Part shown: piece by piece, positions 2,318 through 16,179 of the stretch
How the letters are laid out: each line of letters starts with the position of its first letter
How positions within the stretch are numbered: position 1 is the first letter of the stretch
Origin: a virus
Strand: one strand, 5' to 3'
Length of the DNA: 19,994 nucleotides
UHGV virus genome: UHGV-0075856
Position numbers and translations under genes: made by a program
The notes under the pieces: generated by a model
The model's input: only the letters and a program-made list of their open reading frames with translations
Told to the model about the DNA's origin: nothing
Databases searched by the model: none

Positions 2318-5300
2318 ATGGAAAGAAAAAACGCCAACATTGACGATGTTATAAGGACAGTTGAAACCGCCAGTGCAAAAGAGCTGGAAGAGCTTGCAGG
2401 TATCCGGGAAGCTGTTGAAGATTTGAAAGGGGGACGCGTTGCAACTGTTGATCCTGTCTCTCGCAGTGTGTCGGCATTAAATCGCACAATCGAAAATTCC
2501 CGGCCAGACTTTGTGGCCAATGCGCCATCAGTGGACCCTATTGTTGAGGCAATGAAACGGCTTAATTTAGGGGACGTTTCTCGTGTAGTTCAGGAAGATG
2601 TTGCTCAACAGGAACAGCGGGCCAAATCAACCACACCAAAGGGTAAAAAACGACGCAGGAAGGCTATACCAGAGGATGTAAAGGCACAACGGACCGAAGC
2701 AGCCGAACACGCTCGCGAAATGTTCGGTCAAAAAGGCGGTGCGCAAAAAAGCCAAAACCAACGCGATGCGCGTGGTCGTTTTATTGGAAAGTCAGGGAGT
2801 AAGGCCGCAGCGGAAGATGCCCGTGCTGAACGAGCAGAAAAGGCCAGGCGAAAAGAGGATGATGAGCGTCTAAATGCTGAATCAGGTTTATTAAAAAAAC
2901 TGTCAAAAGTAGCTGAAGGCATAGGTAACCCTTCAGAGACTCGTGCTGTCGATGCGTTAGGTTATGCCGTTGCAGGTCCATTGTGGGCAGCAGGGAAGGA
3001 GCTTGGCGGGATATCAAAAGAAGTTGGCGGATCGCTTAATGGTGCCAGAAAGTCTATTGCCGATGTGATTCGTGGCAATGACGATAACAGCCGTAGAAAA
3101 GGTTTTTTTAGGCGTAAATCGCAAAATAGTGCCGATGTCGTTCAGGTTAACACCCAAAAACGGACGGTTCAGGAACTTCAGGAGCAGACCAGCGAAATTA
3201 AAGAGGGCAATGACAAGATTCTCAGCGCCCTTGATCAGATAGCCAAAAACACCGGGAAAAAGAAGGGCGGCTTGCTGTCCAAACTATTTAGCCTGTTAGG
3301 GAAGGGGGCCGGTGGCGTCGCGTCGTTGTTAATGGGGCGTGGCATGCTGAAAAAAGCTGGAGCACTCGCTTTTGGCGCTCTGGGGGCAAAGAAACTTGTA
3401 GGAATGCTACGCGGTGGTGGTAAGAAGACTCTCGCCCATGAAGGCGGAGATTTGGCTGCCCGGGCAGCAGGTAAACTTGGATTAAAGGCAGTTGGTAAAG
3501 GGGCGTTACGCGCAATTCCCCTAGTCGGCACAGTGGTTGGAGGTATTTATGATGCGGTAACCGGTTGGAATGATACAGAAGCGCAACGTCGAGCGTTTGG
3601 GCTTAAATCAGGACAAGATCCATCATTCCAGCAAAAAGCCGCTTATACGTTAGCTAATATTCTTGATATGGGGGGACTGGTATCTGGTATTAGCAGCGCC
3701 ATTGGTGAGGTTCTCAAATCACTTGGATTTGAGGATATCGGCAATATGTTGCAATCATTTTCGACGGAAAGTATTGCCCATGCCATTGATAGTGGGATTA
3801 CCAACTTAGAAACATATATTTCTAACCTTGGCGACACCATTTCTACCAAGTTCGATGATTACACAGCAAAGATTGGTGATGCTGTTTCAGCATGGTTTAG
3901 CGATACATCTAATAAGCTGCTTGAAAAGCTGGATGCCATCAAAGACTTCTTTACTGTCGATAACCTGAAACAGGTTTTCAGTGATGCAATTGATAGTGCA
4001 ATTGATTTCATTAAGAACCCAGGGAAACACATTAAAGAGGCGGCTGGTAATATTTGGGATGGGGTTAAAAATTTACCAGGTAAAGCATTAGATGCAGCGG
4101 TTGATGCCGTTAAAAATACCCCTGCGGCAATGATTGTATCAAAAATACCCAATCCGATCGGCGAGGCTAATGCGAAAGAAATCACTCCAGAGTTAAAAGC
4201 TCCGGTTAATAGCCACCAGGAGACATCTGATTCTAAAACTGAATCCGATGCCAAACAGACTAATATTGTTACCCGCGTGATAAATGCGGCACTGGACACG
4301 GCGAAAGATAGCAATAAAACAGTTAAAGAAACTGCTAATCAGATTATCAATGCAAATGCCGTAGAAACGGGCAATAGCGCGTTGCAGAAAATTGATAAAG
4401 CTATTGGTCAAAATAGCTCGTCATCATCGTCGCTTAATACCACTGGCACCAGGAATGACATTCAGAAAGCTGCGGATACCTACAACAATGGCAACTTGGA
4501 TGTAAAAGTCGGAAGTCTTGGCGCTGAAGGTAAGGCAAATCTCGATAAGTTGGCTCCGTATTTTGCCGAACTAGAGAATAAATACGGTCTTCCAGAAGGC
4601 ACTCTTTACGCGATTGCTGCAACTGAATCTGGTGGTAATCCGTATGCAAAATCCCAAACCGGTGCTCTGGGGATGTTTCAGTTCACGGGGATTGCTCGTG
4701 AAGAGACTGGCTTAGCTGAAGGTGAATCGTTTGATCCTGTGAAATCGGCAGAAGCTGCGGCTCTTCTCATGAGCAAATATCTGAAGCAAGCCAATGGAGA
4801 CTTAAACGAGGCCATCACTGCATATAATGCTGGGTTTGGCACTATCAATAAGTGGAAAAAAGGCACAGGTGACTTATCGAAAGAAAACCGTGAGTACGCG
4901 ATCAAGGTCAATACTCATCGTGCTCGCTATTTAGGTGGTGAAATCTATACACCTGGAGCAGGAGCACAGGGTGGGGCGCAATATGGAGTGAGGGGACCAC
5001 TGCCTGATAACGCTGTTATCGATCAGTCTACTGGCCTGGCGTTTACCCCTGGTGATAGCCCGTTTGAGAAAGGCGGTCTGGTAGACAAAATTGGCAATGC
5101 TGTTGGCGTTAACGATCTGGTCAACAAATTCATGAATGGCCGGGGTATGCGTCGGGAAGTCGTTCAGGGAACGCTCGAAGAACGTGCACGAGGGAAGGGG
5201 ACCGCAACAGCAGCTGGCAATGTGTATGTTGATACTCCGATGCCAGTTGAAGAGGCGCGTCCGGTGGCCAGCAACTCAAGTTACTTTGACCAACTCGGCG

Positions 5301-6066: not shown

Positions 6067-7496
6067 GTAAAACAACACCGACTAAAGACAGTATTCGTGC
6101 AGAGTTTGAAGAGCTTGTCGAGAAAGATTCATTCTGGTCGAAGTTTGTCGGCTCTCAATTTGTCTCGATGCTGACATTGTTTATTACCCAGATTGTCTAC
6201 AGGTGCTTTCAGTATGCCGATGCGGCGCTGGCTGAAGGCTTTATATCGACCGCGACGCGGCGTTCCTCTATCCTGGCAGCGGCAGAAACGAATAGTTACG
6301 TTGGTACCAAGCCAACACCGTCATCGGGGATGATTGAGATCACCGCCACAAGTGAAGATGCCCCAGCGGTAATCCCCAAAAACATGCCTTTAATATCTGA
6401 CGACCAGTACCCTTACATGACTATGGATGTATGCAGGTTGGTTGACGGCACCGGTACGGTAGAAGTGGCACAGTTGGAAATCCAGGAGGTGACATATACC
6501 GTTACGGCAGCCAAAGAATTTCTGGAAGTCGTGTTATCAAAGGCTCTCACTGCTGTCTGCTGTAAGCTGGAAGTATTCGTGACGACCGATGGTAAGACCA
6601 CGCAGTGGTCTTCCAGCACTATGTTCCGGTTAGCCGGTAGTAAAAGCCAGGTCTACGTTGAGTTTTATAAGCCATCCGAGCAGTTGGGGGTTCGATTCGG
6701 TGATGGGCTAATTGGGCAAATACCGCCAGAAGGCTCGACCATTACACTTAAGGTATGGTGCACCAACGGAGATATAACCCTGGTTGCTGGCCAAAACCTG
6801 ACTCCTGTCGATTCTGCGGCTAATTTAGCTAATTTGATTTCAGTTAAGACAACGACACCCATAACCGCAGGTACCGATGCCGAAACAACGGAGATCACAC
6901 GTAATCGTGCACAATATTACCTTGCCTATGATGATCAGGTCGTATGGGGCGGGGACTATACGTATTTTCTGGTGCGTAACATCCCGGGACTGTCCTGGGT
7001 AAAGGCATGGGGCGAAGGCCAGCAAGAGAAATTAGATGGTGCTTATAATGTTCGGAATATCAATAAGATATTTATTTCAGGATGGCATCCAAACAAAAGC
7101 CAGTCAGAGCTTGAAGAAATGATCCTGGCTGCCTTTAAGAAGGTGCCGAATGAGTTGAACAAGAAATTCTCGTATAAAGAGGTCAGAAAACTCCCCTTTA
7201 AGATCACCATCACTGGGCGGATATCGGCAAGCCTGACCATTGAGAACGTGACTGATGAGCTGAAGTCGGCACTGGAAACAAAATTTGGGCGTGACTCAAC
7301 TTTCTTTGATCCGAACCGTGTCGGCAAGTACATCCTAATCAAGAAAAAAGACGTTTGGGCATTTATCGAAACGCTGGGTTATTTCCGCGACTTTTATCTG
7401 GAATTTGTCGAGTGGAATGAGTCCAACGGCTTTTACGATTTCGTTTATCTGGATACAGAAAACTCCACCTTTAATATTTCGTATGAGGAGGAGTGA
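6063..7496 (+). CDS. Baseplate structural protein (477 aa), J/gp6-like candidate
   Basis: ORF start overlaps the upstream stop; assignment is from position in the baseplate block only. Confidence 0.4.
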   Translation: MSKTTPTKDSIRAEFEELVEKDSFWSKFVGSQFVSMLTLFITQIVYRCFQYADAALAEGFISTATRRSSILAAAETNSYVGTKPTPSSGMIEITATSEDAPAVIPKNMPLISDDQYPYMTMDVCRLVDGTGTVEVAQLEIQEVTYTVTAAKEFLEVVLSKALTAVCCKLEVFVTTDGKTTQWSSSTMFRLAGSKSQVYVEFYKPSEQLGVRFGDGLIGQIPPEGSTITLKVWCTNGDITLVAGQNLTPVDSAANLANLISVKTTTPITAGTDAETTEITRNRAQYYLAYDDQVVWGGDYTYFLVRNIPGLSWVKAWGEGQQEKLDGAYNVRNINKIFISGWHPNKSQSELEEMILAAFKKVPNELNKKFSYKEVRKLPFKITITGRISASLTIENVTDELKSALETKFGRDSTFFDPNRVGKYILIKKKDVWAFIETLGYFRDFYLEFVEWNESNGFYDFVYLDTENSTFNISYEEE

Positions 7497-8332
7497 TGCA
7501 GCGTTCCTGGTTTAATAACCGGCTTACATCAGCTAAGCAAAAGTCATTACTTTATAAATCATTGGCTGATTTGGTTCAGTCAATGATGGACACCTTTGTT
7601 GACCCATGGTTGGAGCGAATTACCAACCGGAAGTCTATTTTCTCCATGAGCAAGGAGGATCTGGAGACTAGGACAAATGAACTTGGCCAGTTTTTTACTA
7701 TCAGGACGTCGAATTCATCTTCCGTTCCGATGTTGTTACAACAGCGGTTTGATGAGATCCATTTTAAGGGTACTGAACGCCCTATAAACCAGACAATTTA
7801 TCGCGAATTTAACGGTATATCGGTTTTATGGGATCCCATATATGCTCCGGTGGACTTTGAACGTCATCCCTATGGCACGGTCCTGATTCCAGAAAGCACA
7901 CTGGAAACCACCGGCGGCACATTCGGCGAGATGTTTCTGACTTCCAGAGGAATGATCAGTATTCCCATAAACGACCTGGCCCGGACAATGGGTATTACTG
8001 GAACGATAGATCAGTCCGCAATTACAGAAGAAATTCTCAGAAAGTTTAATCAGTTCGTAAAGCCTCTACTGCCACTGCATATAGTGTTTGATGGGCTTAC
8101 GCTCTATTTGTCGGTTGTTGTAAATGAACAGGCCGACATGATTACTTTGAATGAGATTTCTGATACCGAAAAAGCATTCTGCTGGTTTGAAACTTCGGAT
8201 ACAACTTCGCTTACTGAAGTTACGTCGATTAACGCCCCGATCACTGCAACGCCGGGCGGCACTATTGTGAAAGCAACGCCTACGTTTGATCGCACCCGCG
8301 CAGATGATTTGCTGTTGGATAGCGATGCGTGA
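7493..8332 (+). CDS. Baseplate/tail structural protein (279 aa); likely true start is the ATG at 7496
   Basis: GAGGAGGAG RBS directly upstream of the ATG at 7496; overlaps the end of the previous gene. Function by position only. Confidence 0.4.
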   Translation: MMQRSWFNNRLTSAKQKSLLYKSLADLVQSMMDTFVDPWLERITNRKSIFSMSKEDLETRTNELGQFFTIRTSNSSSVPMLLQQRFDEIHFKGTERPINQTIYREFNGISVLWDPIYAPVDFERHPYGTVLIPESTLETTGGTFGEMFLTSRGMISIPINDLARTMGITGTIDQSAITEEILRKFNQFVKPLLPLHIVFDGLTLYLSVVVNEQADMITLNEISDTEKAFCWFETSDTTSLTEVTSINAPITATPGGTIVKATPTFDRTRADDLLLDSDA

Positions 8333-8335
8333 CAA

Positions 8336-8360
8336 TCACCCCGTCCGCAGGGCGGGGTGA
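8336..8360 (+). terminator. GC-rich stem-loop (TCACCCCGTCC-GCAG-GGCGGGGTGA) 4 nt after the stop at 8332; attenuator/terminator candidate
   Basis: Inverted repeat read directly. The following sequence is only moderately T-rich (CAAGTTACTTATCTTAC), so intrinsic terminator function is uncertain. Confidence 0.35.
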
Positions 8361-8410
8361 CAAGTTACTTATCTTACAATGAGGCTTCACAACATTGATT
8401 AGGGAAAATC

Positions 8411-8845
8411 ATGTCTGACGTCTCAACAAACCTCTATAAGAGTCAGTTGTTGGACTATTACTATCAGCGGCGCGCTGAATCGTCCATTAACAAAGGCTCT
8501 CGATTTTTAATCAGCAAGGCCGTTTTTGGTACCAGTTCACTGGTTACTAAGAAAGGAGATGGCACTTATGAGATTGGAGAACTGCCTAAGGCTTTCGATC
8601 TGGCAGAACTGACCAGTCAATTTTGCACCATCAACCTCGTCCCAACCTACTCAGGCGGGATAATTACTGTCCGAATGGACCTTGATCAAAGTCAGTTGCA
8701 GGAAGGGAAAAACTACCCATTCAACACTCTGGTTGTTCTGGATAACGAGAATAAGCCAATCGCCATTATTTGTGTCCAGGAAGACTCGCTGTATGTGGGC
8801 AAAACATATACCGCAGTTATGGCCATAAACTCGACTACAGCATAA
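8411..8845 (+). CDS. Tail-fibre-associated structural protein (144 aa), immediately upstream of the fibre gene
   Basis: ORF with AGGGAAAA RBS. Assigned by position directly 5' of the tail-fibre gene (where P1/Mu R-like genes sit); no motif confirmation. Confidence 0.45.
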   Translation: MSDVSTNLYKSQLLDYYYQRRAESSINKGSRFLISKAVFGTSSLVTKKGDGTYEIGELPKAFDLAELTSQFCTINLVPTYSGGIITVRMDLDQSQLQEGKNYPFNTLVVLDNENKPIAIICVQEDSLYVGKTYTAVMAINSTTA

Positions 8846-8856
8846 GGATATGCTTG

Positions 8857-9930
8857 ATGAATGACGTTACAGTTGTTACATCGGTTACTTACCCATCACC
8901 CGAGTCGTTGGCTCTGGTGGCTGATGTGCAATACCACGAACCATATCTGTCAGCCGCTCTAAACCGAAAATTCAGGGGAATTGTTGACCCGGGATTTTAT
9001 GCTGGTTTCTTGCCTAAGCCTGGCGGTGGGATGAACCTGTTAATCACCTCAGTGGATGGAGATAAAACCGCTGGCGCGGCGTCAGTGGATATTGGTGAAT
9101 TCTACCAGGTAACTATTCAGCATCGTAAGGATATCTCTCTTGCACTTAACGCAGGCAAGAAATATGCAATTGTGCTGAAGGGAAGATACCTTCTTGGAGA
9201 AGATACCTATCAGGTGAATACCGCGTCACATATTCATGCAGCTGAATTTGTTGCCAGAACCTATACCGATTCATATCAGTTAGGTGATGGGGAACTGCTG
9301 GTTTGTACGGTGAATATCCCTGCTGGCGTATCTACCATTACTCAAGAGATGATTGATACATCCGAGCGTATCAACCGCACGATCGGCATTGATATTTCAG
9401 ACTCTGTAACCAGTACCAGAAGTGATGTTGCTGCGAGTTCGCTGGCAGTTAAAAAAGCCTACGATCTGGCGAAAAGCAAGTATACGGCGCAGGATGCAAG
9501 CACAACGCAAAAGGGATTAGTTCAGCTCAGTAGTGCCACTAACAGCACGTCTGAAGTGCTGGCCGCCACACCGAAAGCTGTCAAGGCTGCATATGATTTG
9601 GCTAACGGGAAGTATACAGCCCAGGATGCAACCACGGCTCAAAAAGGGATAGTCCAACTCAGCAGTGCTACCAATAGCACGTCCGAAGTGCTGGCCGCCA
9701 CACCGAAAGCTGTCAAGGCTGCATATGATTTGGCTAATGGAAAGCAAGCGGCAGACGCTACGCTCACTGCTCTAGCGGCACTAGCTACAGCAGCAGATAA
9801 ACTCCCTTATTTCACAGGTGTTGATCGTGCCGCGTTAACTGCATTGACAAGTGTTGGACGCGCCATTCTTGGTAAGACCAGTATTCAGAGCGTTCTTGAT
9901 TACCTTCCATTTCTGCTAAAGCACCCATGA
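8857..9930 (+). CDS. Tail fibre, constant N-terminal/shaft part (Sc); in this orientation it ends prematurely 8 codons after the inversion crossover (…SVLDY-LPFLLKHP*) and lacks a receptor-binding domain
   Basis: ATG at 8857 with AGGA RBS (the track ORF from 8770 overlaps the upstream gene). Contains 2.3 copies of a 44-aa phage fibre repeat (…QKG-VQLSSATNSTSEVLAATPKAVKAAYDLA…). The sequence after 9904 is the antisense of an invertase gene and hits a stop at 9928-9930. Confidence 0.8.
   Translation: MNDVTVVTSVTYPSPESLALVADVQYHEPYLSAALNRKFRGIVDPGFYAGFLPKPGGGMNLLITSVDGDKTAGAASVDIGEFYQVTIQHRKDISLALNAGKKYAIVLKGRYLLGEDTYQVNTASHIHAAEFVARTYTDSYQLGDGELLVCTVNIPAGVSTITQEMIDTSERINRTIGIDISDSVTSTRSDVAASSLAVKKAYDLAKSKYTAQDASTTQKGLVQLSSATNSTSEVLAATPKAVKAAYDLANGKYTAQDATTAQKGIVQLSSATNSTSEVLAATPKAVKAAYDLANGKQAADATLTALAALATAADKLPYFTGVDRAALTALTSVGRAILGKTSIQSVLDYLPFLLKHP
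9449..9745 (+). repeat. Tandem direct repeat, 132-bp unit x about 2.3, near-identical at nucleotide level, encoding the 44-aa fibre-shaft repeat
   Basis: Read directly: units begin at about 9449, 9581 and 9713; GAAGTGCTGGCCGCCACACCGAAAGCTGTCAAGGCTGCATATGATTTGGCTAA recurs at 9553 and 9685. Confidence 0.85.
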
Positions 9931-10249
9931 CATGAAAAAAGAAACGCCCCATGGGTGTTGATGTGTCAATACTGTCTGTCAGACTACGGAAATTAACACC
10001 TTTTTCCCGCAACTCCTCTATAAGCGTGATAAGGTGTTTCATACTTCTGCCAAGCCTATCCAGCTTCCAGACAACCAGCGTATCTCCTTCTGATAACGTT
10101 CTGAGCAGCTTTTTCAAGCCTGGTCTGGCTGACTTTGTTCCGCTTATTTTATCTTCAAAAATCAGTTCACATCCTGCGCAGTTCAGTGCATTTCTTTGTA
10201 AATCTGTGTTTTGGTCATTTGTTGACACACGAATGTAGCCAATTTGCAT
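9812..10249 (-). CDS. Serine DNA invertase (Hin/Gin/Pin family), N-terminal catalytic fragment only; invertase-homologous codons span 10249 down to 9905, then the frame runs into antisense fibre sequence to a stop at 9812
   Basis: Translation MQIGYIRVSTNDQNTDLQRNAL…GDTLVVWKLDRLGRSMKHL…SLTDSIDTSTPMGRFFFHVMGALAEME is the conserved invertase catalytic domain (active-site Ser in YIRVSTNDQ) and then becomes unrelated (GNQERSEYWS…). ATG at 10247-10249 with AAGAGG RBS; the track's TTG at 10258 is 3 codons upstream. HTH domain is absent here. Confidence 0.85.
   Translation of the reverse strand: MQIGYIRVSTNDQNTDLQRNALNCAGCELIFEDKISGTKSARPGLKKLLRTLSEGDTLVVWKLDRLGRSMKHLITLIEELREKGVNFRSLTDSIDTSTPMGRFFFHVMGALAEMEGNQERSEYWSYQEWRVQHLSMQLTRHDQHL
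9893..9918. other. Hybrid serine-invertase crossover site: hix/gix-like left half-site TTCTTGATTACC, central TT (9905-9906), right half CCATTTCTGCTA derived from inside the invertase ORF
   Basis: Left half matches 10/12 to the hixL half-site TTCTTGAAAACC as I recall it. Right half does not match the consensus and is the reverse complement of invertase codons about 114-118. The central dinucleotide coincides with the point where both gene fusions become in-frame. Confidence 0.6.
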
Positions 10250-10302
10250 GAAAAACAACCTCTTTGTTTAGTTAAAAATACATCGTTGGTATAGGTAGGG
10301 AT

Positions 10303-10330
10303 TAAGACTAAAACGTTGGTTTGGGGGAAG
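10303..10330. other. Invertase crossover site at the start of the Sv cassette (AAGACTAAAACG-TT-GGTTTGGGGGAA), adjacent to the invertase promoter region
   Basis: Half-sites resemble hix/gix (…AAAAC-N2-GGTTT…). Right half is identical to the fibre half of the reconstructed Sc junction site. Lies about 60 bp upstream of the invertase start on the opposite strand. Confidence 0.55.
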
Positions 10331-10530
10331 GCTCTGCACTGCCTGTTGGTGTGCCCGTTCCGTGGCCCTTAGAAACACCACCAACGGGCTGGCTAAAATG
10401 CAATGGTGCAGCATTTTCTTCTGAAATGTATCCCAAACTGGCAAAGGCCTACCCCACCAATAAATTACCGGATTTACGCGGTGAGTTTATCCGTGGTTGG
10501 GATGATGGGCGAGGTGTGGATGCGGGAAGG
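10316..10530 (+). repeat. Left inverted repeat of the invertible fibre cassette (conserved 5' part of Sv), about 200 bp, about 90% identical to the inverted copy at 11685-11898
   Basis: Direct comparison: ACGTTGGTTTGGGGGAAGGCTCTGCACTGCCTGTTGGTGTGCCCGTTCCGTGGCC here versus the reverse complement of 11843-11898 (CACGTTGGTTTGGGGGAAGGCTCAGCATTGCCTGTTGGCGTACCTGTTCCGTGGCC). Encoded peptides are near-identical for about 62 aa. Confidence 0.85.
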
Positions 10531-10779
10531 GTCATCTTAAGCATACAGGGGTGGTTAACAGGAAGTCATTATCATAATATTCGGTCATGGGACGCGTGGG
10601 ATAACACGGTATTGGTGCCAAATGACAGAGGGGGGGATAGTCTGTTGTCGACAGATAACGCCGTCCGGCAAGGAGCGATTAATGGTAAATTTACCAGTCA
10701 ATACAGAACGGAGTTATCTGGGGGGAATGAAACCCGCCCACGTAACATTGCCTTCAATTATATTGTGAGAGCAGCATAA
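10321..10779 (+). CDS. Tail-fibre variable C-terminal cassette Sv (receptor-binding part); not fused to Sc in this orientation (in-frame TAA two codons upstream), so the TTG 'start' in the ORF track is an artefact
   Basis: Peptide GEGSALPVGVPVPWP…GWLKCNGAAF…ETRPRNIAFNYIVRAA is paralogous to the - strand cassette. The frame opens exactly at the crossover site and is immediately followed by a fibre-assembly gene. Confidence 0.7.
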   Translation: MGEGSALPVGVPVPWPLETPPTGWLKCNGAAFSSEMYPKLAKAYPTNKLPDLRGEFIRGWDDGRGVDAGRVILSIQGWLTGSHYHNIRSWDAWDNTVLVPNDRGGDSLLSTDNAVRQGAINGKFTSQYRTELSGGNETRPRNIAFNYIVRAA

Positions 10780-11390
10780 TGGATAATGCGATATTAAATA
10801 GCGAACTTATAGCCATACAGGCAGGAAACATTATCGTTTATAACTATGATGGTGGTAATCGGGAATATATTTCTGCATCAACTGAATATCTTGCTGTTGG
10901 CGTTGGTATTCCGGCAAATTCTTGTTTGGATGCTCCAGGCTCACATAAAGCAGGTTATGCGATTCTCCGTTCAGAGGATTTAAGTTCATGGGAGTATGTG
11001 CCAGATCATCGTGGCGAAACTGTCTATAGCATTGACACTGGGAATCCCGAAGAAATCACGGTGTTGGGTGACTATCCGGAAAATACAACCACTATCGCCC
11101 CGCTAACACCATACGACAAATGGGATGGAGAGAAATGGGTGGTTGATACTGAGGCTCAACATAGTGCAGCTGTAGAGGCAGCAGAAACAAAACGTCAGTC
11201 ATTGATTGATACTGCGATGGATTCCATTAGTCTGATTCAGTTGAAATTACGGGCTGGACGGAAGTTGACGCAGGCAGAAACCACGCAGCTTAACTCCGTG
11301 CTAGATTATATAGACGAGCTGAACGCGATGGATTTAACCACGGCACCAGATCTCAACTGGCCTGAAAAACAACTTTCTACAGCCAGTTGA
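10779..11390 (+). CDS. Tail-fibre assembly chaperone (U/Tfa-like, 203 aa)
   Basis: ATG overlaps the Sv stop (TAATG). Sits directly downstream of a fibre C-terminal cassette inside the invertible segment, as in Mu/P1/e14 Tfa arrangements. Assignment by position and size. Confidence 0.6.
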   Translation: MDNAILNSELIAIQAGNIIVYNYDGGNREYISASTEYLAVGVGIPANSCLDAPGSHKAGYAILRSEDLSSWEYVPDHRGETVYSIDTGNPEEITVLGDYPENTTTIAPLTPYDKWDGEKWVVDTEAQHSAAVEAAETKRQSLIDTAMDSISLIQLKLRAGRKLTQAETTQLNSVLDYIDELNAMDLTTAPDLNWPEKQLSTAS

Positions 11391-11395
11391 TATAA

Positions 11396-11898
11396 TTAAT
11401 CCGCCCTCACAATATAATTAAATGCAATATTACGAGGGCGGGTTTCTAAGCCAGCAGTACCTAAATTAGCTACGGACTGTTTATATGTTTTAAAAGTTCC
11501 ATAATTAGGGGCTGGCAATCCTGCATCGCTTGTGTTCCCCCATCTGATAACTCCCGTATTACCACTAGTAGCCCATGCCTCGTCAAAGTAGAAATTAATT
11601 GAGCGGTCAGTTGCTACGGTTGATTTTGACGGTAATCCGTGAGCATGATCCTCCGTTGCATATCCTTGCTCGCTTAAAATAGAGCGACCAGAGTCAATCC
11701 CTCGCCCATCATCCCAGCCACGGATAAACTCACCGCGTAAATCAGGTAATTTTAACGTTGGGTAAACCTTTGCCAGATTTGGGTACTTTTCAGAAGAAAA
11801 TGCTGCTCCGTTACATTTCAGCCACCCCGTTGGCGGAGTGGCTGAGGGCCACGGAACAGGTACGCCAACAGGCAATGCTGAGCCTTCCCCCAAACCAA
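11396..11898 (-). CDS. Alternative tail-fibre variable C-terminal cassette Sv'; would be fused in frame to Sc after inversion
   Basis: Peptide (from the crossover) GLGEGSALPVGVPVPWPSATPPTGWLKCNGAAFSSEKYPNLAKVYPT…ETRPRNIAFNYIVRAD: same conserved ends as Sv with a divergent central region. The ORF-track N-terminal extension (12049-11899) is antisense of the invertase C-terminus and not part of the fibre. Confidence 0.75.
11402..11441. other. Inverted repeat CCGCCCTC…GAGGGCGG (8-bp stem, 24-nt AT-rich loop) between the convergent chaperone and Sv' 3' ends; possible bidirectional terminator
   Basis: Read directly; lies within the last codons of Sv' on the - strand and 12 nt after the chaperone stop; followed by GTTTCT on +. 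Confidence 0.3.
11685..11898 (-). repeat. Right inverted repeat of the invertible fibre cassette (conserved 5' part of Sv')
   Basis: Reverse complement matches 10316-10530 as described for the left repeat. Confidence 0.85.
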
Positions 11899-11910
11899 CG
11901 TGAATTAATT
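11873..11910. other. Second hybrid crossover site: fibre half-site TTCCCCCAAACC, central AA (11897-11898), then CGTGAATTAATT which is invertase codons 119-122 (R-E-L-I)
   Basis: The fibre inverted repeat ends exactly at the codon where invertase homology resumes. The central AA is the complement of the TT at 9905-9906. Confidence 0.6.
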
Positions 11911-12126
11911 GTTGAGAGAACACTGGCCGGACTGGCAGCTGCACGCGAACAGGGACGCATTGGCGGACGTCGCCCGAAGTTGACAAAAGAACAACATGAG
12001 CAAATAGCGAGGTTGATCGAAAATGGCTACAGCAGGAAACAGTTGGCAATTATTTACGATATCGGTGTATCGACGATTTATCGTTATCATCCTGTAGAGA
12101 AGCGCCAAACTCAATCTGAGCTGTAA
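11899..12126 (+). CDS. Serine DNA invertase C-terminal fragment (end of E-helix plus HTH DNA-binding domain, 75 codons); no native start codon in this arrangement
   Basis: Peptide RELIVERTLAGLAAAREQGRIGGRRPKLTKEQHEQIARLIENGYSRKQLAIIYDIGVSTIYRYHP matches the Hin/Gin C-terminus and continues precisely from …GALAEME at the end of the - strand fragment. Upstream in-frame residues (MGKPLPDLG…LPPNQ) are antisense of Sv'. Confidence 0.85.
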   Translation, partial: RELIVERTLAGLAAAREQGRIGGRRPKLTKEQHEQIARLIENGYSRKQLAIIYDIGVSTIYRYHPVEKRQTQSEL

Positions 12127-12435
12127 TTCTAATGCCGCGTCGGTGTAATTTATCTTGATAGAATAGGTACATTTATCGCGCGGCACATCAATTCGATGTA
12201 TCTAGCGCCTGCTGACCGCTAATGAAAACTGTTCTCGAAATGTTGTCCCTAGTCCGAGACTAGGGTATCACCTCTGGAAAGCATACGCAGAACCTTTTTT
12301 AACCCAGGGTGCCCAGCTTTTTTGCTGCTCGCCTTATTCGCAAAAATTAGCTCACATCCTGCGCTTTCAAGTGCTTTTCACTGCATAGCTGTGTTTTGTT
12401 CATTTGTCTATATGCGTACATAGCCTATTAGCATA
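12127..12435 (-). pseudogene. Decayed Cin-like serine invertase remnant (N-terminal about 100 codons, several in-frame stops and frameshifts), convergent with the invertase C-terminal fragment
   Basis: Reverse-strand translation from 12435: MLIGYVR-I*-TNEQNTAMQ*-KALESAGCELIFANKASSKKAGHPGLKKVLRMLSRGDTLV… then frameshifted (…ALDTS…). About 75% nucleotide identity to the 5' end of the invertase at 10121-10250. Recognisable homology fades near 12190; the 3' boundary is uncertain. Confidence 0.7.
12247..12265. other. Perfect palindrome CCCTAGTC-CGA-GACTAGGG inside the invertase pseudogene, at the point where its reading frame collapses
   Basis: Read directly; sits where the pseudogene stops tracking …GDTLVVWKLDRLGRS… in the intact paralogue. 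Confidence 0.5.
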
Positions 12436-12561
12436 TTTTCTGCCCACTATCGTTATTTATTGCAAGCTACAGGTTTTAATTAACAAAACCAGTGTGTGTG
12501 GAAATCACAAAGTGCATACCGTTCTCAAATGTTGTTCAACTTACTGTTGTATAGGTAAAAA

Positions 12562-12825
12562 ATGACATTTTATGTACATATCGTGATGTTATCCCTTCTT
12601 GGTGGGGTGTATTCGTATTTGAGTGGGCTATGTGAAAACCGTTACGAGTCTTCATGCAAGAAATTGCTGGCCGAATGTATTTCCGCCGTACTTGCTGGCT
12701 TTATTGGCATGTATCTCGCGGAATATAAGGACATGAATGAAAGCCTTCAGAGCTGCATGGTTCTTATTTTCAGCGCCAATAGCAGGCTTATTATTGAAGG
12801 TTCCAAAAGTCGGTTGAATAGGTAA
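12562..12825 (+). CDS. Small hydrophobic ORF (87 aa, two predicted membrane segments), unassigned; may be non-coding
   Basis: Open frame with ATG, but only a weak RBS (TAGGTAAAAA). Two hydrophobic stretches (IVMLSLLGGVYSYLSGL; ISAVLAGFIGMYLA). Sits in a 0.77-kb gap between the invertase remnants and the holin gene. Confidence 0.3.
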   Translation: MTFYVHIVMLSLLGGVYSYLSGLCENRYESSCKKLLAECISAVLAGFIGMYLAEYKDMNESLQSCMVLIFSANSRLIIEGSKSRLNR

Positions 12826-12899
12826 GTCTCTTATGCAACATAACCGGTTGAGAAGTTACTTTGCATACCATTACCTCCTGACAACGTAGGAGGGAACTT

Positions 12900-13229
12900 G
12901 TGCTTGACACACAGGAATTAGCTCCAGTTGCTATTGCGCTCCTGCTTTCAGTAATTGGTGGGATAGGCACGTTCCTGATGGATGTCCGAGACGGTCGCCA
13001 GTCTGGCAATTTGTTGGGATTGGTTACGGAGATCTTTGTTGCAGTGACAGCTGGCGCGGTGGCGTACCTATTGGGGCAACACGAGGGCTGGGAGTTATCA
13101 ATTACGTACTTAATGGTAACGATAGCCAGCAATAACGGTCATGAGGTGATTTCAGGGATGAAACGAGTGAATATCGATAGCATTCTGAATGTTCTTACAA
13201 GTTTGGTGAAAAAGGGAGGCGGGAAATGA
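12900..13229 (+). CDS. lydA: Holin (P1 LydA-like, 109 aa)
   Basis: GTG start 5 nt after a strong AGGAGGGAA RBS. 109 aa with hydrophobic membrane segments and a charged C-terminus (…VKKGGGK). Size, position ahead of a 147-aa partner and a dar operon match P1 lydA as I recall it. Confidence 0.6.
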   Translation: MLDTQELAPVAIALLLSVIGGIGTFLMDVRDGRQSGNLLGLVTEIFVAVTAGAVAYLLGQHEGWELSITYLMVTIASNNGHEVISGMKRVNIDSILNVLTSLVKKGGGK

Positions 13230-13669
13230 TTGGCTGGGGTGTATGCGTTCTTGCGTTAGCCTTAGCCGATCGCTATTTGCTAAAACGCAAGGACATCACG
13301 CATTTAGAACTTGGTGATGTGGAAATTAAACCGGGTTTCATCCGGGTGCCGTTCAAATACCGGTCTAAATTCCCGTTTTTGCGCGGCGCAACGGTCAGAT
13401 ATTGGATCCGCGATGTTCAGAAGCCGACGACAGTGATTGAAGGCGAACAACGTTGTTTGACGTCGGCTGAACAGGGCGAAAACAGTGAATGGTTGTACAT
13501 ACCCACTGAATATATGGGTAAAGGAGAGCGACTGTGGCATTTCAACGTCATGGTTACGCATGGCGACTCGTTCATTAACCCGTTGTATCGGATTTTCCCT
13601 GTTACTCAGCAAATCCGCAGAAGTTACGTAATAAATCTCGCACAGGATGTGTCAGATGACGAAAAATAA
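13226..13669 (+). CDS. lydB: Antiholin / holin-associated protein (P1 LydB-like, 147 aa)
   Basis: ATGA overlap with the holin stop (translational coupling). N-terminal hydrophobic segment (GWGVCVLALALA). Size and synteny match P1 lydB as recalled; no catalytic motif seen. Confidence 0.5.
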   Translation: MIGWGVCVLALALADRYLLKRKDITHLELGDVEIKPGFIRVPFKYRSKFPFLRGATVRYWIRDVQKPTTVIEGEQRCLTSAEQGENSEWLYIPTEYMGKGERLWHFNVMVTHGDSFINPLYRIFPVTQQIRRSYVINLAQDVSDDEK

Positions 13670-14258
13670 GTATGCAACGGTCGATTTTGACCAGGTTAAT
13701 GAAAAGGGGCTGAAATCCCTTATCGCGGCGATCAATAAAACCGGTGTTACGGTAATTGAGGTTGACTCCAGCAACCGCGCAACAACGAAAGATGGCGTTA
13801 AAGTTAAAACCGCAAAGCTGGTTCTTAACGACGGACAAATTCTTGCCATACAGGTAAACGATACTGGCGATATATCGTCTGTGAGGCTGAATGGAAAAGC
13901 TATTCCTAACGCTCAGTCGCCGGATATCAAGACGCTTGGTACCGTCATGGGGCAAGCGGCCCGCAAAAACTCCGCAAAATTCCAGAAATCACTGATCGCC
14001 AAAGCGAAACGTGTTGCCAATCCGGTAGACAAGAAACCGGCAGTAAAATCCAACTTTCAGCGCCTGCAAGAGGCAAAACAGCGGAATGCTCAGGTGGTTG
14101 CCGCTTATAAATCAGCGCAGAACTCGGTGTCTTTCAATCAACAGCAGATCACTGATTTGCGGGCGAAGCTGGATAAGGAGACAGGCCGACTCAATAACGA
14201 AAAGGCCCGAAATGGCGAACTCAAACGCCGTCTTAAGCAACTGAAAGCAGGAAATTAA
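13656..14258 (+). CDS. hdf: Hdf-like protein (DarA-homologous fragment; head-associated antirestriction/morphogenesis component), about 200 aa
   Basis: ATG at 13656 with AGGA RBS (track ORF starts at 13647). Shares a segment with the next ORF (…ARKNSAKFQKSLIAKAK… versus …AEKNSAKFQRAQKKKK…, and AAAAACTC[C/G]GCAAAATTCCAG at the nucleotide level). Both have a coiled-coil-like stretch. Confidence 0.55.
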   Translation: MTKNKYATVDFDQVNEKGLKSLIAAINKTGVTVIEVDSSNRATTKDGVKVKTAKLVLNDGQILAIQVNDTGDISSVRLNGKAIPNAQSPDIKTLGTVMGQAARKNSAKFQKSLIAKAKRVANPVDKKPAVKSNFQRLQEAKQRNAQVVAAYKSAQNSVSFNQQQITDLRAKLDKETGRLNNEKARNGELKRRLKQLKAGN

Positions 14259-14259
14259 C

Positions 14260-16179
14260 ATGGAACAGTTCAATATCAATAAAGGGGTGACGATCAAGCC
14301 TGGGCTTGACGTGCTTCCCCCGCCAGTGACTGATGATGAATATCGCGCATTAATGGCCGGTGAGGACCGCTATCTGATGACGGAATCCAACACCCTGGAG
14401 GAAATCGAGGCTACGTTCTTCTATGACACGCCGATCCACTGGTGTGCTACGGATTTACTGGAGGCGATTAGTTCTACTCGTTTGCAGTTACACCGGACCA
14501 TGCAGGCATTTGTCCGGGCATTAAACCAGAAGCTGAATGGTACCGGAATCTCTGCGGGGAGTGATAAAACGGGGGATGTGGCCCAGAACGGTGCACGCGC
14601 GATCGGCGGGGCTGAAATTGGCCGGGCACGTAACGTTAACGGGCTGCCGGTCCTGCCAGCCATTATTCCGCTCAGTGATGGTCAGACTATCAGCATTCTG
14701 TTTCATAGCCCGACAGCGGAAAACCGGATCACCAATAGCGATACGCTGATTGCTTTCCAGTTCTTACTGAATAAAAAAGACGTTACTCATACCGTTGCTC
14801 CGATGAGTGGACGTGATATGACGCTGGCGCAGGTCACCATGAAACTTGCCAACCTTGCAGAGAAAAACTCGGCAAAATTCCAGCGTGCGCAGAAGAAGAA
14901 AAAAGCCCTGGTTGATGAAATAACCCAACTACAGGCTGACAGTGACCAGAAAGAGGATGCCATGAGCGACCTCGCGGATCAGGTGGCAGCGGTAGAAGGG
15001 CAGAAGGTAGATCTGGAGCAGAAAATTAACGCTGTTGCATCGGAAGCGGATTCTCTTTATGAAGAGAATGAGCGTTTGCAGACGGAGATTGATCAGCTCA
15101 ATCGAACTGGTGGGCGCGAAACCATTGCTCCTGCGGGGATGACTGGTGGACACTCTCGCGCGATGACGGATCGCCTTGCAAGTATCAAAAATCGTATGCA
15201 TATGAACGGGGAAGTGACGCTCAGTAATGGTGCATCAATGAAGCAATTCATTGAGGACGGTGAAGGGTATATCCAGTTAACCGATTCGGATGGCAGCGTG
15301 TACATGATCAAGGCTAAATCCATACAGGGTGTGGACATGGCAGATGCGATCGGCAAGCTGTTTAAAGCCTATAAAGCGGGTAATGTATCGGAATACCTGG
15401 TCCAACCAGAAGAACATAAACCGGAAAACGTCGAACCTGAACCAGCGGAGGATACCGGTAGCTCTTCGCCTGAACCAGAAGTCTCTGTAGGTGCATATCG
15501 ATATGCCCTGCAAATGCGTCCGGCGGCCCCTGGCGCAATACCTGAAGGTAACAAAGCAATTCTGCCGCGCCCTGATGAAGGTGACCCGTATTATGAATAT
15601 GCACGCTACGGCATTGCTACTTACGATACCCCGCTTTCTGATCAGCAAATGAGTGAGTACGACCTGAAGTTATTGCCTCGCGAGGATTCTTTCGACTTCT
15701 TGGCGAAGACACTTACTAATGGTCCGTTTGGCAAATATGCACAAAAAGCTCTGGAGCTGGCCACCAGCTCACCAGACGAGTTCCGCGTAATGCTGAAAAC
15801 TCAGTTTCAAAAAACTTTCCCCAATATTGCGTATCCGGGGGGCGCTGGCACCGAAAAAATGGTGCAGAGCATGATCAATGCATTGCAGGCCGAAGTCGGT
15901 GAGATTACTCAGCCAGAACCTGCCCCGGCACAGCCTGATGAAACGGTTAGCGAAGCAGATGCAGAGGCTAATAAAGCCATTGAATATCTCAATAACGTGA
16001 TGGATATGCAAAGCACTGACATGGCGGAGATCCGTAACGCCCGGGGCAATGTCCGGGAAGCGATTGCAGCCCTTCAGGCTGCCGGGCGTTTTGAGGAAAA
16101 CGAAGAGCTGGTTAATGGCGCTGCTCGCCACCTGGCTGATCTGCTGGTAGCAATCCAGAAAGCGGGGGTAGCGGCATGA
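14260..16179 (+). CDS. darA: DarA-like antirestriction/capsid-internal protein (639 aa)
   Basis: 639-aa ORF starting 2 nt after the previous stop. Internal homology to the preceding Hdf-like ORF, a heptad-rich coiled coil (…DEITQLQADSDQKEDAMSDLADQVAAVEGQKVDLEQKINAV…) and an acidic Pro/Glu-rich linker. Size and order (holin, antiholin, hdf, darA, ddrA, ddrB) match the P1 darA operon as I recall it. Confidence 0.6.
   Translation: MEQFNINKGVTIKPGLDVLPPPVTDDEYRALMAGEDRYLMTESNTLEEIEATFFYDTPIHWCATDLLEAISSTRLQLHRTMQAFVRALNQKLNGTGISAGSDKTGDVAQNGARAIGGAEIGRARNVNGLPVLPAIIPLSDGQTISILFHSPTAENRITNSDTLIAFQFLLNKKDVTHTVAPMSGRDMTLAQVTMKLANLAEKNSAKFQRAQKKKKALVDEITQLQADSDQKEDAMSDLADQVAAVEGQKVDLEQKINAVASEADSLYEENERLQTEIDQLNRTGGRETIAPAGMTGGHSRAMTDRLASIKNRMHMNGEVTLSNGASMKQFIEDGEGYIQLTDSDGSVYMIKAKSIQGVDMADAIGKLFKAYKAGNVSEYLVQPEEHKPENVEPEPAEDTGSSSPEPEVSVGAYRYALQMRPAAPGAIPEGNKAILPRPDEGDPYYEYARYGIATYDTPLSDQQMSEYDLKLLPREDSFDFLAKTLTNGPFGKYAQKALELATSSPDEFRVMLKTQFQKTFPNIAYPGGAGTEKMVQSMINALQAEVGEITQPEPAPAQPDETVSEADAEANKAIEYLNNVMDMQSTDMAEIRNARGNVREAIAALQAAGRFEENEELVNGAARHLADLLVAIQKAGVAA

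Follow-up and report, generated by a model that had tools for sequence, protein, structure and literature searches.

The stretch of DNA analysed here, 19,994 nucleotides (nt) of the virus genome UHGV-0075856 (in the following "the window"), carries a tail-fibre inversion switch in which the gene of the DNA invertase is split into two halves residing on opposite strands. Such switches are textbook site-specific recombination systems. One breakpoint of the inversion which separates the two halves is the exact centre of a functional 26-base-pair (bp) fibre crossover site in agreement with published invertase sites, and the other lies inside the open reading frame of the invertase, at a poorly matching quasi-site designated Q. 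With high confidence, we read this arrangement as an aberrant quasi-site inversion by an invertase of the Hin/Gin/Cin/Pin family, which took place in a tail-fibre inversion region of Min/p15B type, carried by a P1-like phage-plasmid of human-gut metagenomic origin. Sequence comparison furthermore indicates that such natural self-splitting is not a one-off, as the same dinucleotide has been used independently in a phage-plasmid and in a P2-like prophage. The features concerned are the following (positions in the window):

8857..9930, + strand: tail-fibre gene S (PF03406, Phage_fiber_2); Sc is cut off after ...SIQSVLDY by junction J1, 357 amino acids.
9893..9918, + strand: hybrid crossover site J1, TTCTTGATTACC-TT-CCATTTCTGCTA, central TT at 9905-9906, composed of a good fibre-side half and a quasi-site half (search k-mer GATTACCTTCCATTTC).
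9812..10249, − strand: N-terminal fragment of the invertase (PF00239, E = 1e-43), codons 1-115 at 10249..9905.
10160..10231, − strand: putative recombinational (Fis-type) enhancer in the invertase 5' coding region, as suggested by homology to the P1 cin enhancer.
10304..10329, + strand: native promoter-proximal crossover site, AAGACTAAAACG-TT-GGTTTGGGGGAA, central TT at 10316-10317, between the invertase 5' region and cassette Sv.
10321..10779, + strand: variable fibre cassette Sv (PF07484, tail-collar domain), without promoter and unlinked from Sc in the split state.
11396..11896, − strand: variable fibre cassette Sv' (PF07484), probably an assembly chimera.
11885..11910, + strand: hybrid crossover site J2, TTCCCCCAAACC-AA-CGTGAATTAATT, central AA at 11897-11898, composed of a good Sv-side half and a quasi-site half (search k-mer AAACCAACGTGAATTAATTG).
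11899..12126, + strand: C-terminal fragment of the invertase, codons 116-190 and stop, comprising the rest of helix E and HTH_7 (PF02796, E = 7e-16).

The − strand encodes invertase residues 1-115 (MQIGYIRVSTNDQ...FFFHVMGALAEME), followed by 30 unrelated codons which run antisense to Sc up to a stop at 9812, altogether a fusion protein of 145 amino acids. Residues 116-190 (RELIVERT...YRYHPVEKRQTQSEL*) are encoded on the + strand, the HTH_7 domain hence being parted from the catalytic domain, and a single polypeptide of 190 amino acids results only from in silico re-inversion of 9905-11898. The rejoined protein matches PF00239 at E = 2e-51 as well as HTH_7 and equals WP_001165547.1 at 190/190 amino acids, its gene being identical at 573/573 nt to the intact genes of plasmids pGD27-62 and pLAO54. 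Its alignment with Gin of phage Mu (PDB 3UJ3/4M6F) is gap-free over residues 1-185 (E = 4e-92) and places the junction in helix E; the catalytic serine of the N-terminal fragment, contained in YIRVSTNDQ, is aligned with that of Gin, which is replaced by alanine in the 3UJ3 mutant. By these sequence criteria the gene is a disrupted member of the Hin/Gin/Cin/Pin serine DNA invertases. Gene S ends with ...SIQSVLDY plus eight junk codons (LPFLLKHP*) and a stop at 9928-9930, and re-inversion yields an Sc-Sv' fibre of 516 amino acids which differs at three positions from WP_112929361.1 of pGD27-62. The first-pass annotation of this DNA had proposed a catalytic domain on the − strand (10249-9905) running into junk, its continuation on the + strand from 11899 and an inversion that joins both to an invertase of about 190 residues, all of which is borne out, including the alignment to Gin it had suggested. 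Its in-frame Sc-Sv' fusion stands as well, with the reservation that Sv' itself probably is a chimera of two cassettes.

Judged from the sequence, the invertase and fibre gene S are both broken in the split state. The N-terminal fragment retains its promoter but is devoid of most of helix E and of the DNA-binding domain, and inspection of the window revealed no evident promoter for the C-terminal fragment. Because S is without its receptor-binding C-terminus and both cassettes are unlinked from Sc, phage particles should not adsorb and infectivity would be lost.

Comparison with pGD27-62 (L001) by BLAST reveals three collinear blocks of 99.1-99.8% identity, of which the middle one alone is flipped (about 9905-11898): window 7000-9906 corresponds to 7906-5000 of L001, 9896-11905 to 2998-5007, and 11897-14500 to 3009-406. 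Intact relatives such as this plasmid exhibit the predicted parental arrangement. At base level, parental sites and junctions read as follows:

Parental fibre site: ...GTTCTTGATTACC TT GGTTT...
Parental invertase site (reverse complement): ...CAATTAATTCACG TT CCATTTCTGC...
Window J1: ...GTTCTTGATTACC TT CCATTTCTGC...
Window J2 (reverse complement): ...CAATTAATTCACG TT GGTTTGGGGG...

Since the bases beside the central dinucleotide differ between the parental sites on both sides (ACC-TT-GGT versus ACG-TT-CCA), the exchange is confined to the TT/AA dinucleotide. J1 and J2 are reciprocal and no base has been gained or lost. Such confinement of the exchange to a matched central dinucleotide is the signature of conservative recombination by a serine invertase. 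The published 26-bp sites, which consist of imperfect 12-bp inverted half-sites and a 2-bp core, are matched both by the native site (10304-10329) and by the fibre site as reconstructed; the native site is of the form reported for EC958 Phi2, GAGAGATAAACG TT GGTTTGGGGGAA.

Site Q (TAGCAGAAATGG-AA-CGTGAATTAATT) spans codons 115/116 of the invertase in helix E and shares the central dinucleotide with the fibre site in inverted orientation (AA / TT). Its score in a matrix derived from 12-17 native half-sites is about −11 bits, compared to +25 bits for the fibre site. The first-pass annotation had described a common central dinucleotide (TT 9905-9906, AA 11897-11898), a hix/gix-like fibre site, a poor, cryptic partner in the invertase reading frame and an over-extended inversion between the two; the matrix scores, the differing flanks, the reciprocal lossless junctions and the parental layout of the relatives agree with it throughout, as does the comparison with related phage-plasmids, pGD27-62 being collinear except for the flipped block. 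Among AA-centred 26-mers, Q takes rank 146 to 172 among 1,731 in the window and rank 8 among 70 in the gene plus promoter. We therefore rejected the half-site matrix as an explanation of why Q is chosen. What Q has in common with the native sites is the orientation of the central dinucleotide, the core AACGT, which in native sites belongs to the outer half, and an A/T tract. AACGT occurs at only one other place in the invertase gene (nt 150), and even P1 cin has kept the Q core GAAATGG-AA-CGTGA. Core identity, perhaps together with a narrow minor groove, may place Q among the very few positions within the gene that can serve as targets, which would explain the preference in part. Events at Q would, in addition, become fixed because they destroy the enzyme that could reverse or further scramble them.

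The course of events can be envisaged as a single aberrant, conservative inversion made by a serine invertase, most simply the resident one, with the native fibre-proximal site TTCTTGATTACC-TT-GGTTTGGGGGAA and Q as partners. A 2-bp staggered cut and rejoining would have flipped all DNA between the two sites. The catalytic half would thereby have been placed, along with promoter and enhancer, next to Sc but on the other strand; the DNA-binding half would have kept its place beside the holin genes, and gene S would have come to stop eight codons beyond the junction. As the enzyme would have been destroyed, no self-reversion should take place, which would explain how a rare event could be the majority form in the sample. 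For reversion, an invertase would have to be supplied in trans and to recombine two hybrid sites with one good half-site each.

For recurrence of the split, we searched a large protein collection using as query the open reading frame which runs antisense through the 5' end of Sv into RELIVERT. Further J2-type clusters comprise P0002 (GCA_037047765.1), P0003 (two ENA assemblies) and P0236 (E. coli HAY4782181.1). The locus of GCA_037047765.1 (L016) is part of a P2-like prophage, not of a P1-like plasmid, and displays the same split architecture as the window. Its fibre gene H is cut off at ...GVLDY-LPFRLKPP*, a 145-amino-acid N-terminal fragment lies on the opposite strand, and the C-terminal fragment comprises 127 amino acids. 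The native site reads AAAACGAAAACG-TT-GGTTTGGGGGAA and J2 reads TTCTCCTAAACC-AA-CGTGAATTAATT; J1 and J2 are located at the same intragenic dinucleotide as in the window. Re-inversion of 1,974 bp gives an invertase of 199 and a fibre of 531 amino acids, and the predicted parental sites are present in the intact relatives E2348/69 and STEC1590. The restored gene is 1-3 nt away from the intact genes of these two relatives and 70 nt away from the restored gene of the window, and the N-terminal halves of both splits differ by 22 synonymous and no nonsynonymous codons. As either split gene thus has its nearest intact counterpart among elements of its own type, the splits are independent events of recent date.

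The Logan assembly ERR11200800 (L019) carries a P2-type J1 with an identical N-terminal fragment in a prophage 2.3% diverged from L016, and it may or may not share the L016 event. In a third P2-like lineage (L017/L018), whose flanking tail genes are 93% identical to those of L016, a normal Sc-Sv junction is accompanied by a J2-type junction (TTCCCCCAAACC-AA-CGTGAATTAATT), and the N-terminal half is absent. Most simply, the DNA between the promoter-proximal site and Q, two sites in direct orientation, would have been deleted. Every Q event found concerns the invertase subfamily with the Q right half CGTGAATTAATT, and the N-terminal half, where present, is identical in protein.

The split state is rare. 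No place in PLSDB (72,556 plasmids, 171 of them with a match) and none in 5,426 complete E. coli genomes covers at least 80% of a 251-bp J1 probe, and a 40-mer centred on J2 has zero matches in either collection. Likewise, the phage collection contains no contiguous junction match. Exact and degenerate junction patterns yielded only chance matches, none with invertase homology, in IMG/VR, the JGI metagenomes and the GTDB representatives. E. coli matches to the L016 module at 85-86% coverage turned out to be the normal alternative isomer with an intact invertase and were discarded as splits.

An assembly or scaffolding artefact joining non-contiguous fragments has to be considered, as the window is one complete short-read metagenome contig (NODE_1811_length_19994_cov_17.08 of ENA ERZ773108) of about 17x coverage whose interior seems to have collapsed at repeats, and as superficially similar invertase fusions of S. 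Typhi proved to be scaffolding artefacts containing an N. The exact 145-amino-acid fusion protein that is diagnostic of J1 is, however, encoded on four contigs from at least three assemblies, namely the window, a 22.7-kilobase (kb) scaffold (L012; ERZ28658024, SAMEA2737840), a MEGAHIT-style k127 contig (L014; ERZ914957, ERR589835, PRJEB6997, human gut) and a JGI/IMG copy. J1 thus emerges from the output of at least three assemblers (metaSPAdes-style, MEGAHIT-style and scaffold assemblies), and J2 of two (window and L012); both reciprocal junctions are present, and none of these sequences contains an N. Since the parental sites have only TT in common and share no k-mer at the junctions, there is no de Bruijn path by which J1 or J2 could be made; an assembler cannot step from one parental site to the other, and the junction k-mers must therefore occur in the reads. 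The same junctions were, moreover, encountered outside this element, in an NCBI genome and a Logan assembly, and we regard an artefact as hardly conceivable.

It appears very improbable that the inversion arose without an invertase, by illegitimate or microhomology-mediated recombination or by a replication template switch. Such an origin would account for the poor match of Q to the consensus, and slippage is possible at the deletion-type junction of the third lineage, which has a 5-bp direct repeat, AACGT. Yet it would leave to coincidence that one breakpoint is the 2-bp centre of a functional crossover site, that the exchange is perfectly reciprocal on 2 bp of identity only, and that an independent lineage was broken at the same two positions, which is very unlikely to happen without an enzyme. 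Somewhat less remote, though still improbable, is a programmed feature in which Q is a selected secondary site, serving either as a one-way fuse or for a reversible on/off state of invertase and fibre. Q, used at least twice independently and with its core conserved as far as P1 cin, might in that case have been kept in the invertase subfamily because a rare crossover permanently shuts down switch and fibre; it would be recognised via features beyond the consensus half-sites, such as the AACGT core and the narrow-groove tract AATTAATT. We grant this fuse, including its mode of recognition, the same slim chance. If real, it could benefit the host or the plasmid stage, e.g. by prophage domestication or by ending costly shuffling. 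However, the AEMEREL peptide of helix E, itself conserved, accounts for the conservation of Q. Neither hundreds of related plasmids nor 2,234 matching E. coli genomes contain the split state, and the product, having neither a functional fibre nor an enzyme to return, offers the phage no evident gain.

Several points nevertheless weigh against an aberrant inversion by the resident invertase as we propose it. The sequence cannot distinguish the resident enzyme from one acting in trans. The three assemblies may share one sample, making them independent as assemblers but not as biology. The evidence consists of assembled contigs, so that the share of molecules in the split state and the true cassette content are outside its reach. 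For the L017/L018 junction, slippage on the AACGT repeat is a fair alternative. Finally, given the poor matrix score, sequence resemblance leaves unexplained why Q was chosen at least twice.

The interior of the inverted segment requires separate consideration. L012 is 100% identical to the window outside repeats, mismatches being limited to repeat boundaries (9597-9726, 11702-11766 and 11807-11891), and thus probably represents the same strain or sample in a different assembly. It carries the same J1 and J2, and its inverted segment of 4,411 bp contains seven Sv cassettes and eight crossover sites, as opposed to two cassettes and three crossover sites (two of them hybrid) in the window. Sv1 and U share a strand, the opposite one carrying the remaining six Sv cassettes, each of which is preceded by TTCCCC[T/C]AAACC-AA-CGTTTTTATG. 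In L012 and sibling assemblies Sc has one extra 300-bp repeat unit (S product of 457 amino acids), and re-inversion of L012 gives the same invertase together with a fibre of 604 amino acids. Compared to L012 (reverse complement, 9411-9918 and 12091-14305), the window (9522-9729 and 11396-11898) is missing one 300-bp Sc repeat and 2.2 kb with five Sv cassettes, and within the common stretch 11767-11806 its sequence leaves the cassette 2 body and continues as the 5' end of cassette 7. Because L012 has these additional elements despite its identity outside repeats, the interior of the window, i.e. Sv' and the number of Sc repeats, has probably been collapsed by short-read assembly, a real deletion being the alternative; Sv' is then probably a chimera of the cassette 2 body and the cassette 7 5' end. 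J1 and J2 are untouched by this collapse. A plasmid search retrieved no plasmid with the cassette order of L012, whose arrangement is accordingly uncorroborated.

The assignment of the window to the P1-like phage-plasmids is based on its gene content and its near-identity with many E. coli plasmids. Baseplate and tail genes are followed by R, S, the inversion region, the invertase, lydC-type holins, LydB and Hdf/DarA. Two further features complete the region:

10779..11390, + strand: tail-fibre assembly gene of U/Tfa type (PF02413), likewise annotated in relatives.
12270..12434, − strand: psi-cin relic, about 89% identical to nt 1-165 of P1 cin, outside the split itself.

A multiple-inversion system termed Min has reportedly been described for plasmid p15B by Sandmeier, Iida and Arber. 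The window family appears to resemble it, and the P1 GenBank record, which notes a homologous p15B stretch at the cin relic, agrees in part. The match is suggested by the multi-cassette structure and the cin relic beside lydC. Common to both would be the P1-like backbone with the order R, S, inversion region, lydC, lydA/B and darA, probably several Sv cassettes, as in L012, with a 26-bp crossover site ahead of each, an invertase said to be Pin/Gin-like in Min as well, and a truncated cin-like relic adjoining the invertase (12270-12434 here). In contrast to Min, a crossover at a quasi-site within the invertase gene has split the invertase here and cut S off; the number of cassettes is also different, with two in the window and seven in L012.

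The layout, in which the invertase is transcribed away from the segment, is of the Min/p15B type and not that of P1 Cin. The P1 C-segment system employs the same enzyme family and also swaps the C-terminus of the fibre. The putative enhancer stretch in the 5' coding region is identical at 58 of 72 positions to annotated cin nt 19-90, and the core of Q (GCAGAAATGG-AA-CGTGA) is identical in cin. Whereas cin points towards the C segment, with cixL overlapping its 3' end, the gene in the window points away and the site is upstream of its promoter; P1, moreover, has two crossover sites and 0.6-kb repeats. Recombination of quasi-cix sites by Cin was reportedly studied by Iida and Hiestand-Nauer in 1986/1987. 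Those events resemble the present one in combining one authentic and one poorly matching site with matched central dinucleotides and conservative junctions, in being rare and in fusing or breaking genes. They were, however, selected on laboratory plasmids, whereas the split is natural, lies in the reading frame of the recombinase itself, is self-locking and recurs in unrelated elements. That Cin recombines secondary crossover sites on rare occasions is documented in Arber's account (PMC4270481).

In the P2-like prophage modules of E2348/69 (shufflon-like locus, PMC4272514) and EC958 (Phi2, PMC4134206), the N-terminal half of the invertase is 100% identical in protein, the sites are of the types TCCTCAATTACC TT GGTTTAGGAGAA and GAGAGATAAACG TT GGTTTGGGGGAA, and the parental layout is intact. 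These modules flip normally between authentic sites, the split having been encountered only in GCA_037047765.1, Logan ERR11200800 and relatives. A search of the accessible literature, which does not include the original quasi-cix papers of the 1980s, brought up no report of invertase genes being hit naturally and repeatedly by a crossover within them. While the inversion system and quasi-site recombination are known, recurrent natural self-splitting at a poor intragenic site thus appears to be unreported.

Arber's group has argued from laboratory selections that rare secondary-site recombination is a source of genetic novelty (PMC4270481). The split provides a natural, base-resolved secondary-site event inside the recombinase's own gene, by which enzyme and fibre are lost together, and points to a recurrent route of self-destruction for such switches and to a specific route by which prophages and phage-plasmids may lose infectivity. 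Its recurrence at a poor site constitutes a testable case for target choice in the Hin family with respect to core sequence, DNA shape and enhancer proximity. For annotation, it is a warning that "Resolvase-only" and "HTH_7-only" reading frames flanking fibre cassettes can be halves of one gene. In invertase-based synthetic memory devices, intragenic pseudo-sites could cause self-inactivation.

The searches brought up a number of other damaged invertase genes. Cluster P0135 (117 amino acids, 44 member sequences, Logan) ends with ...GALAEM-NVN*, which fits the loss of one G of ATGGAA beside the central dinucleotide of Q and may have been left behind by cleavage at Q or stem from an error in sequencing. 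Further broken or fused invertase reading frames from E. coli and Salmonella (P0039, P0202, P0011, P0004, P0017, P0031, P0141/L020) have breakpoints differing from Q and include fusions to tail-fibre assembly proteins, an in-frame deletion of residues 50-117 and a gpD fusion a few bases past Q. "Site-specific recombinase" proteins of S. Typhi which diverge after codon 125 were considered as indication of a second intragenic site and rejected as scaffolding artefacts, because a single N marks the join and a palindromic or unrelated contig follows, e.g. at L023 1783-2316 (GCA_001094085.1) and L024 2541-3296 (GCA_001356075.1). We also rejected the Hin1/Hin2 pairs of phages vB_EcoM-813R1 and vB_EcoM-673R5 as split invertases, as they are adjacent frameshift fragments on the same strand; they are situated at L003 4742-5313 and L004 5612-6183, in records with many fragmented genes, and probably reflect sequencing errors. 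At L017 1607-2820, an IS3-family element (HTH_Tnp_1 and rve) has cut the P2-like prophage, removing everything upstream of the C-terminal part of the fibre.

The psi-cin relic is made up of the decayed first 55 or so codons of a P1-cin-type invertase gene and contains in-frame stops, one of them at the codon of the catalytic serine. It adjoins lydC, the position held by cin in P1, and its best-conserved part overlaps the enhancer stretch of cin (62/72). The sole tail-fibre assembly gene (10779-11390) is oriented with the cassette at 10321-10779, and none is located downstream on the strand of the re-inverted Sc-Sv' fibre; pGD27-62 has the same layout with a single assembly gene.

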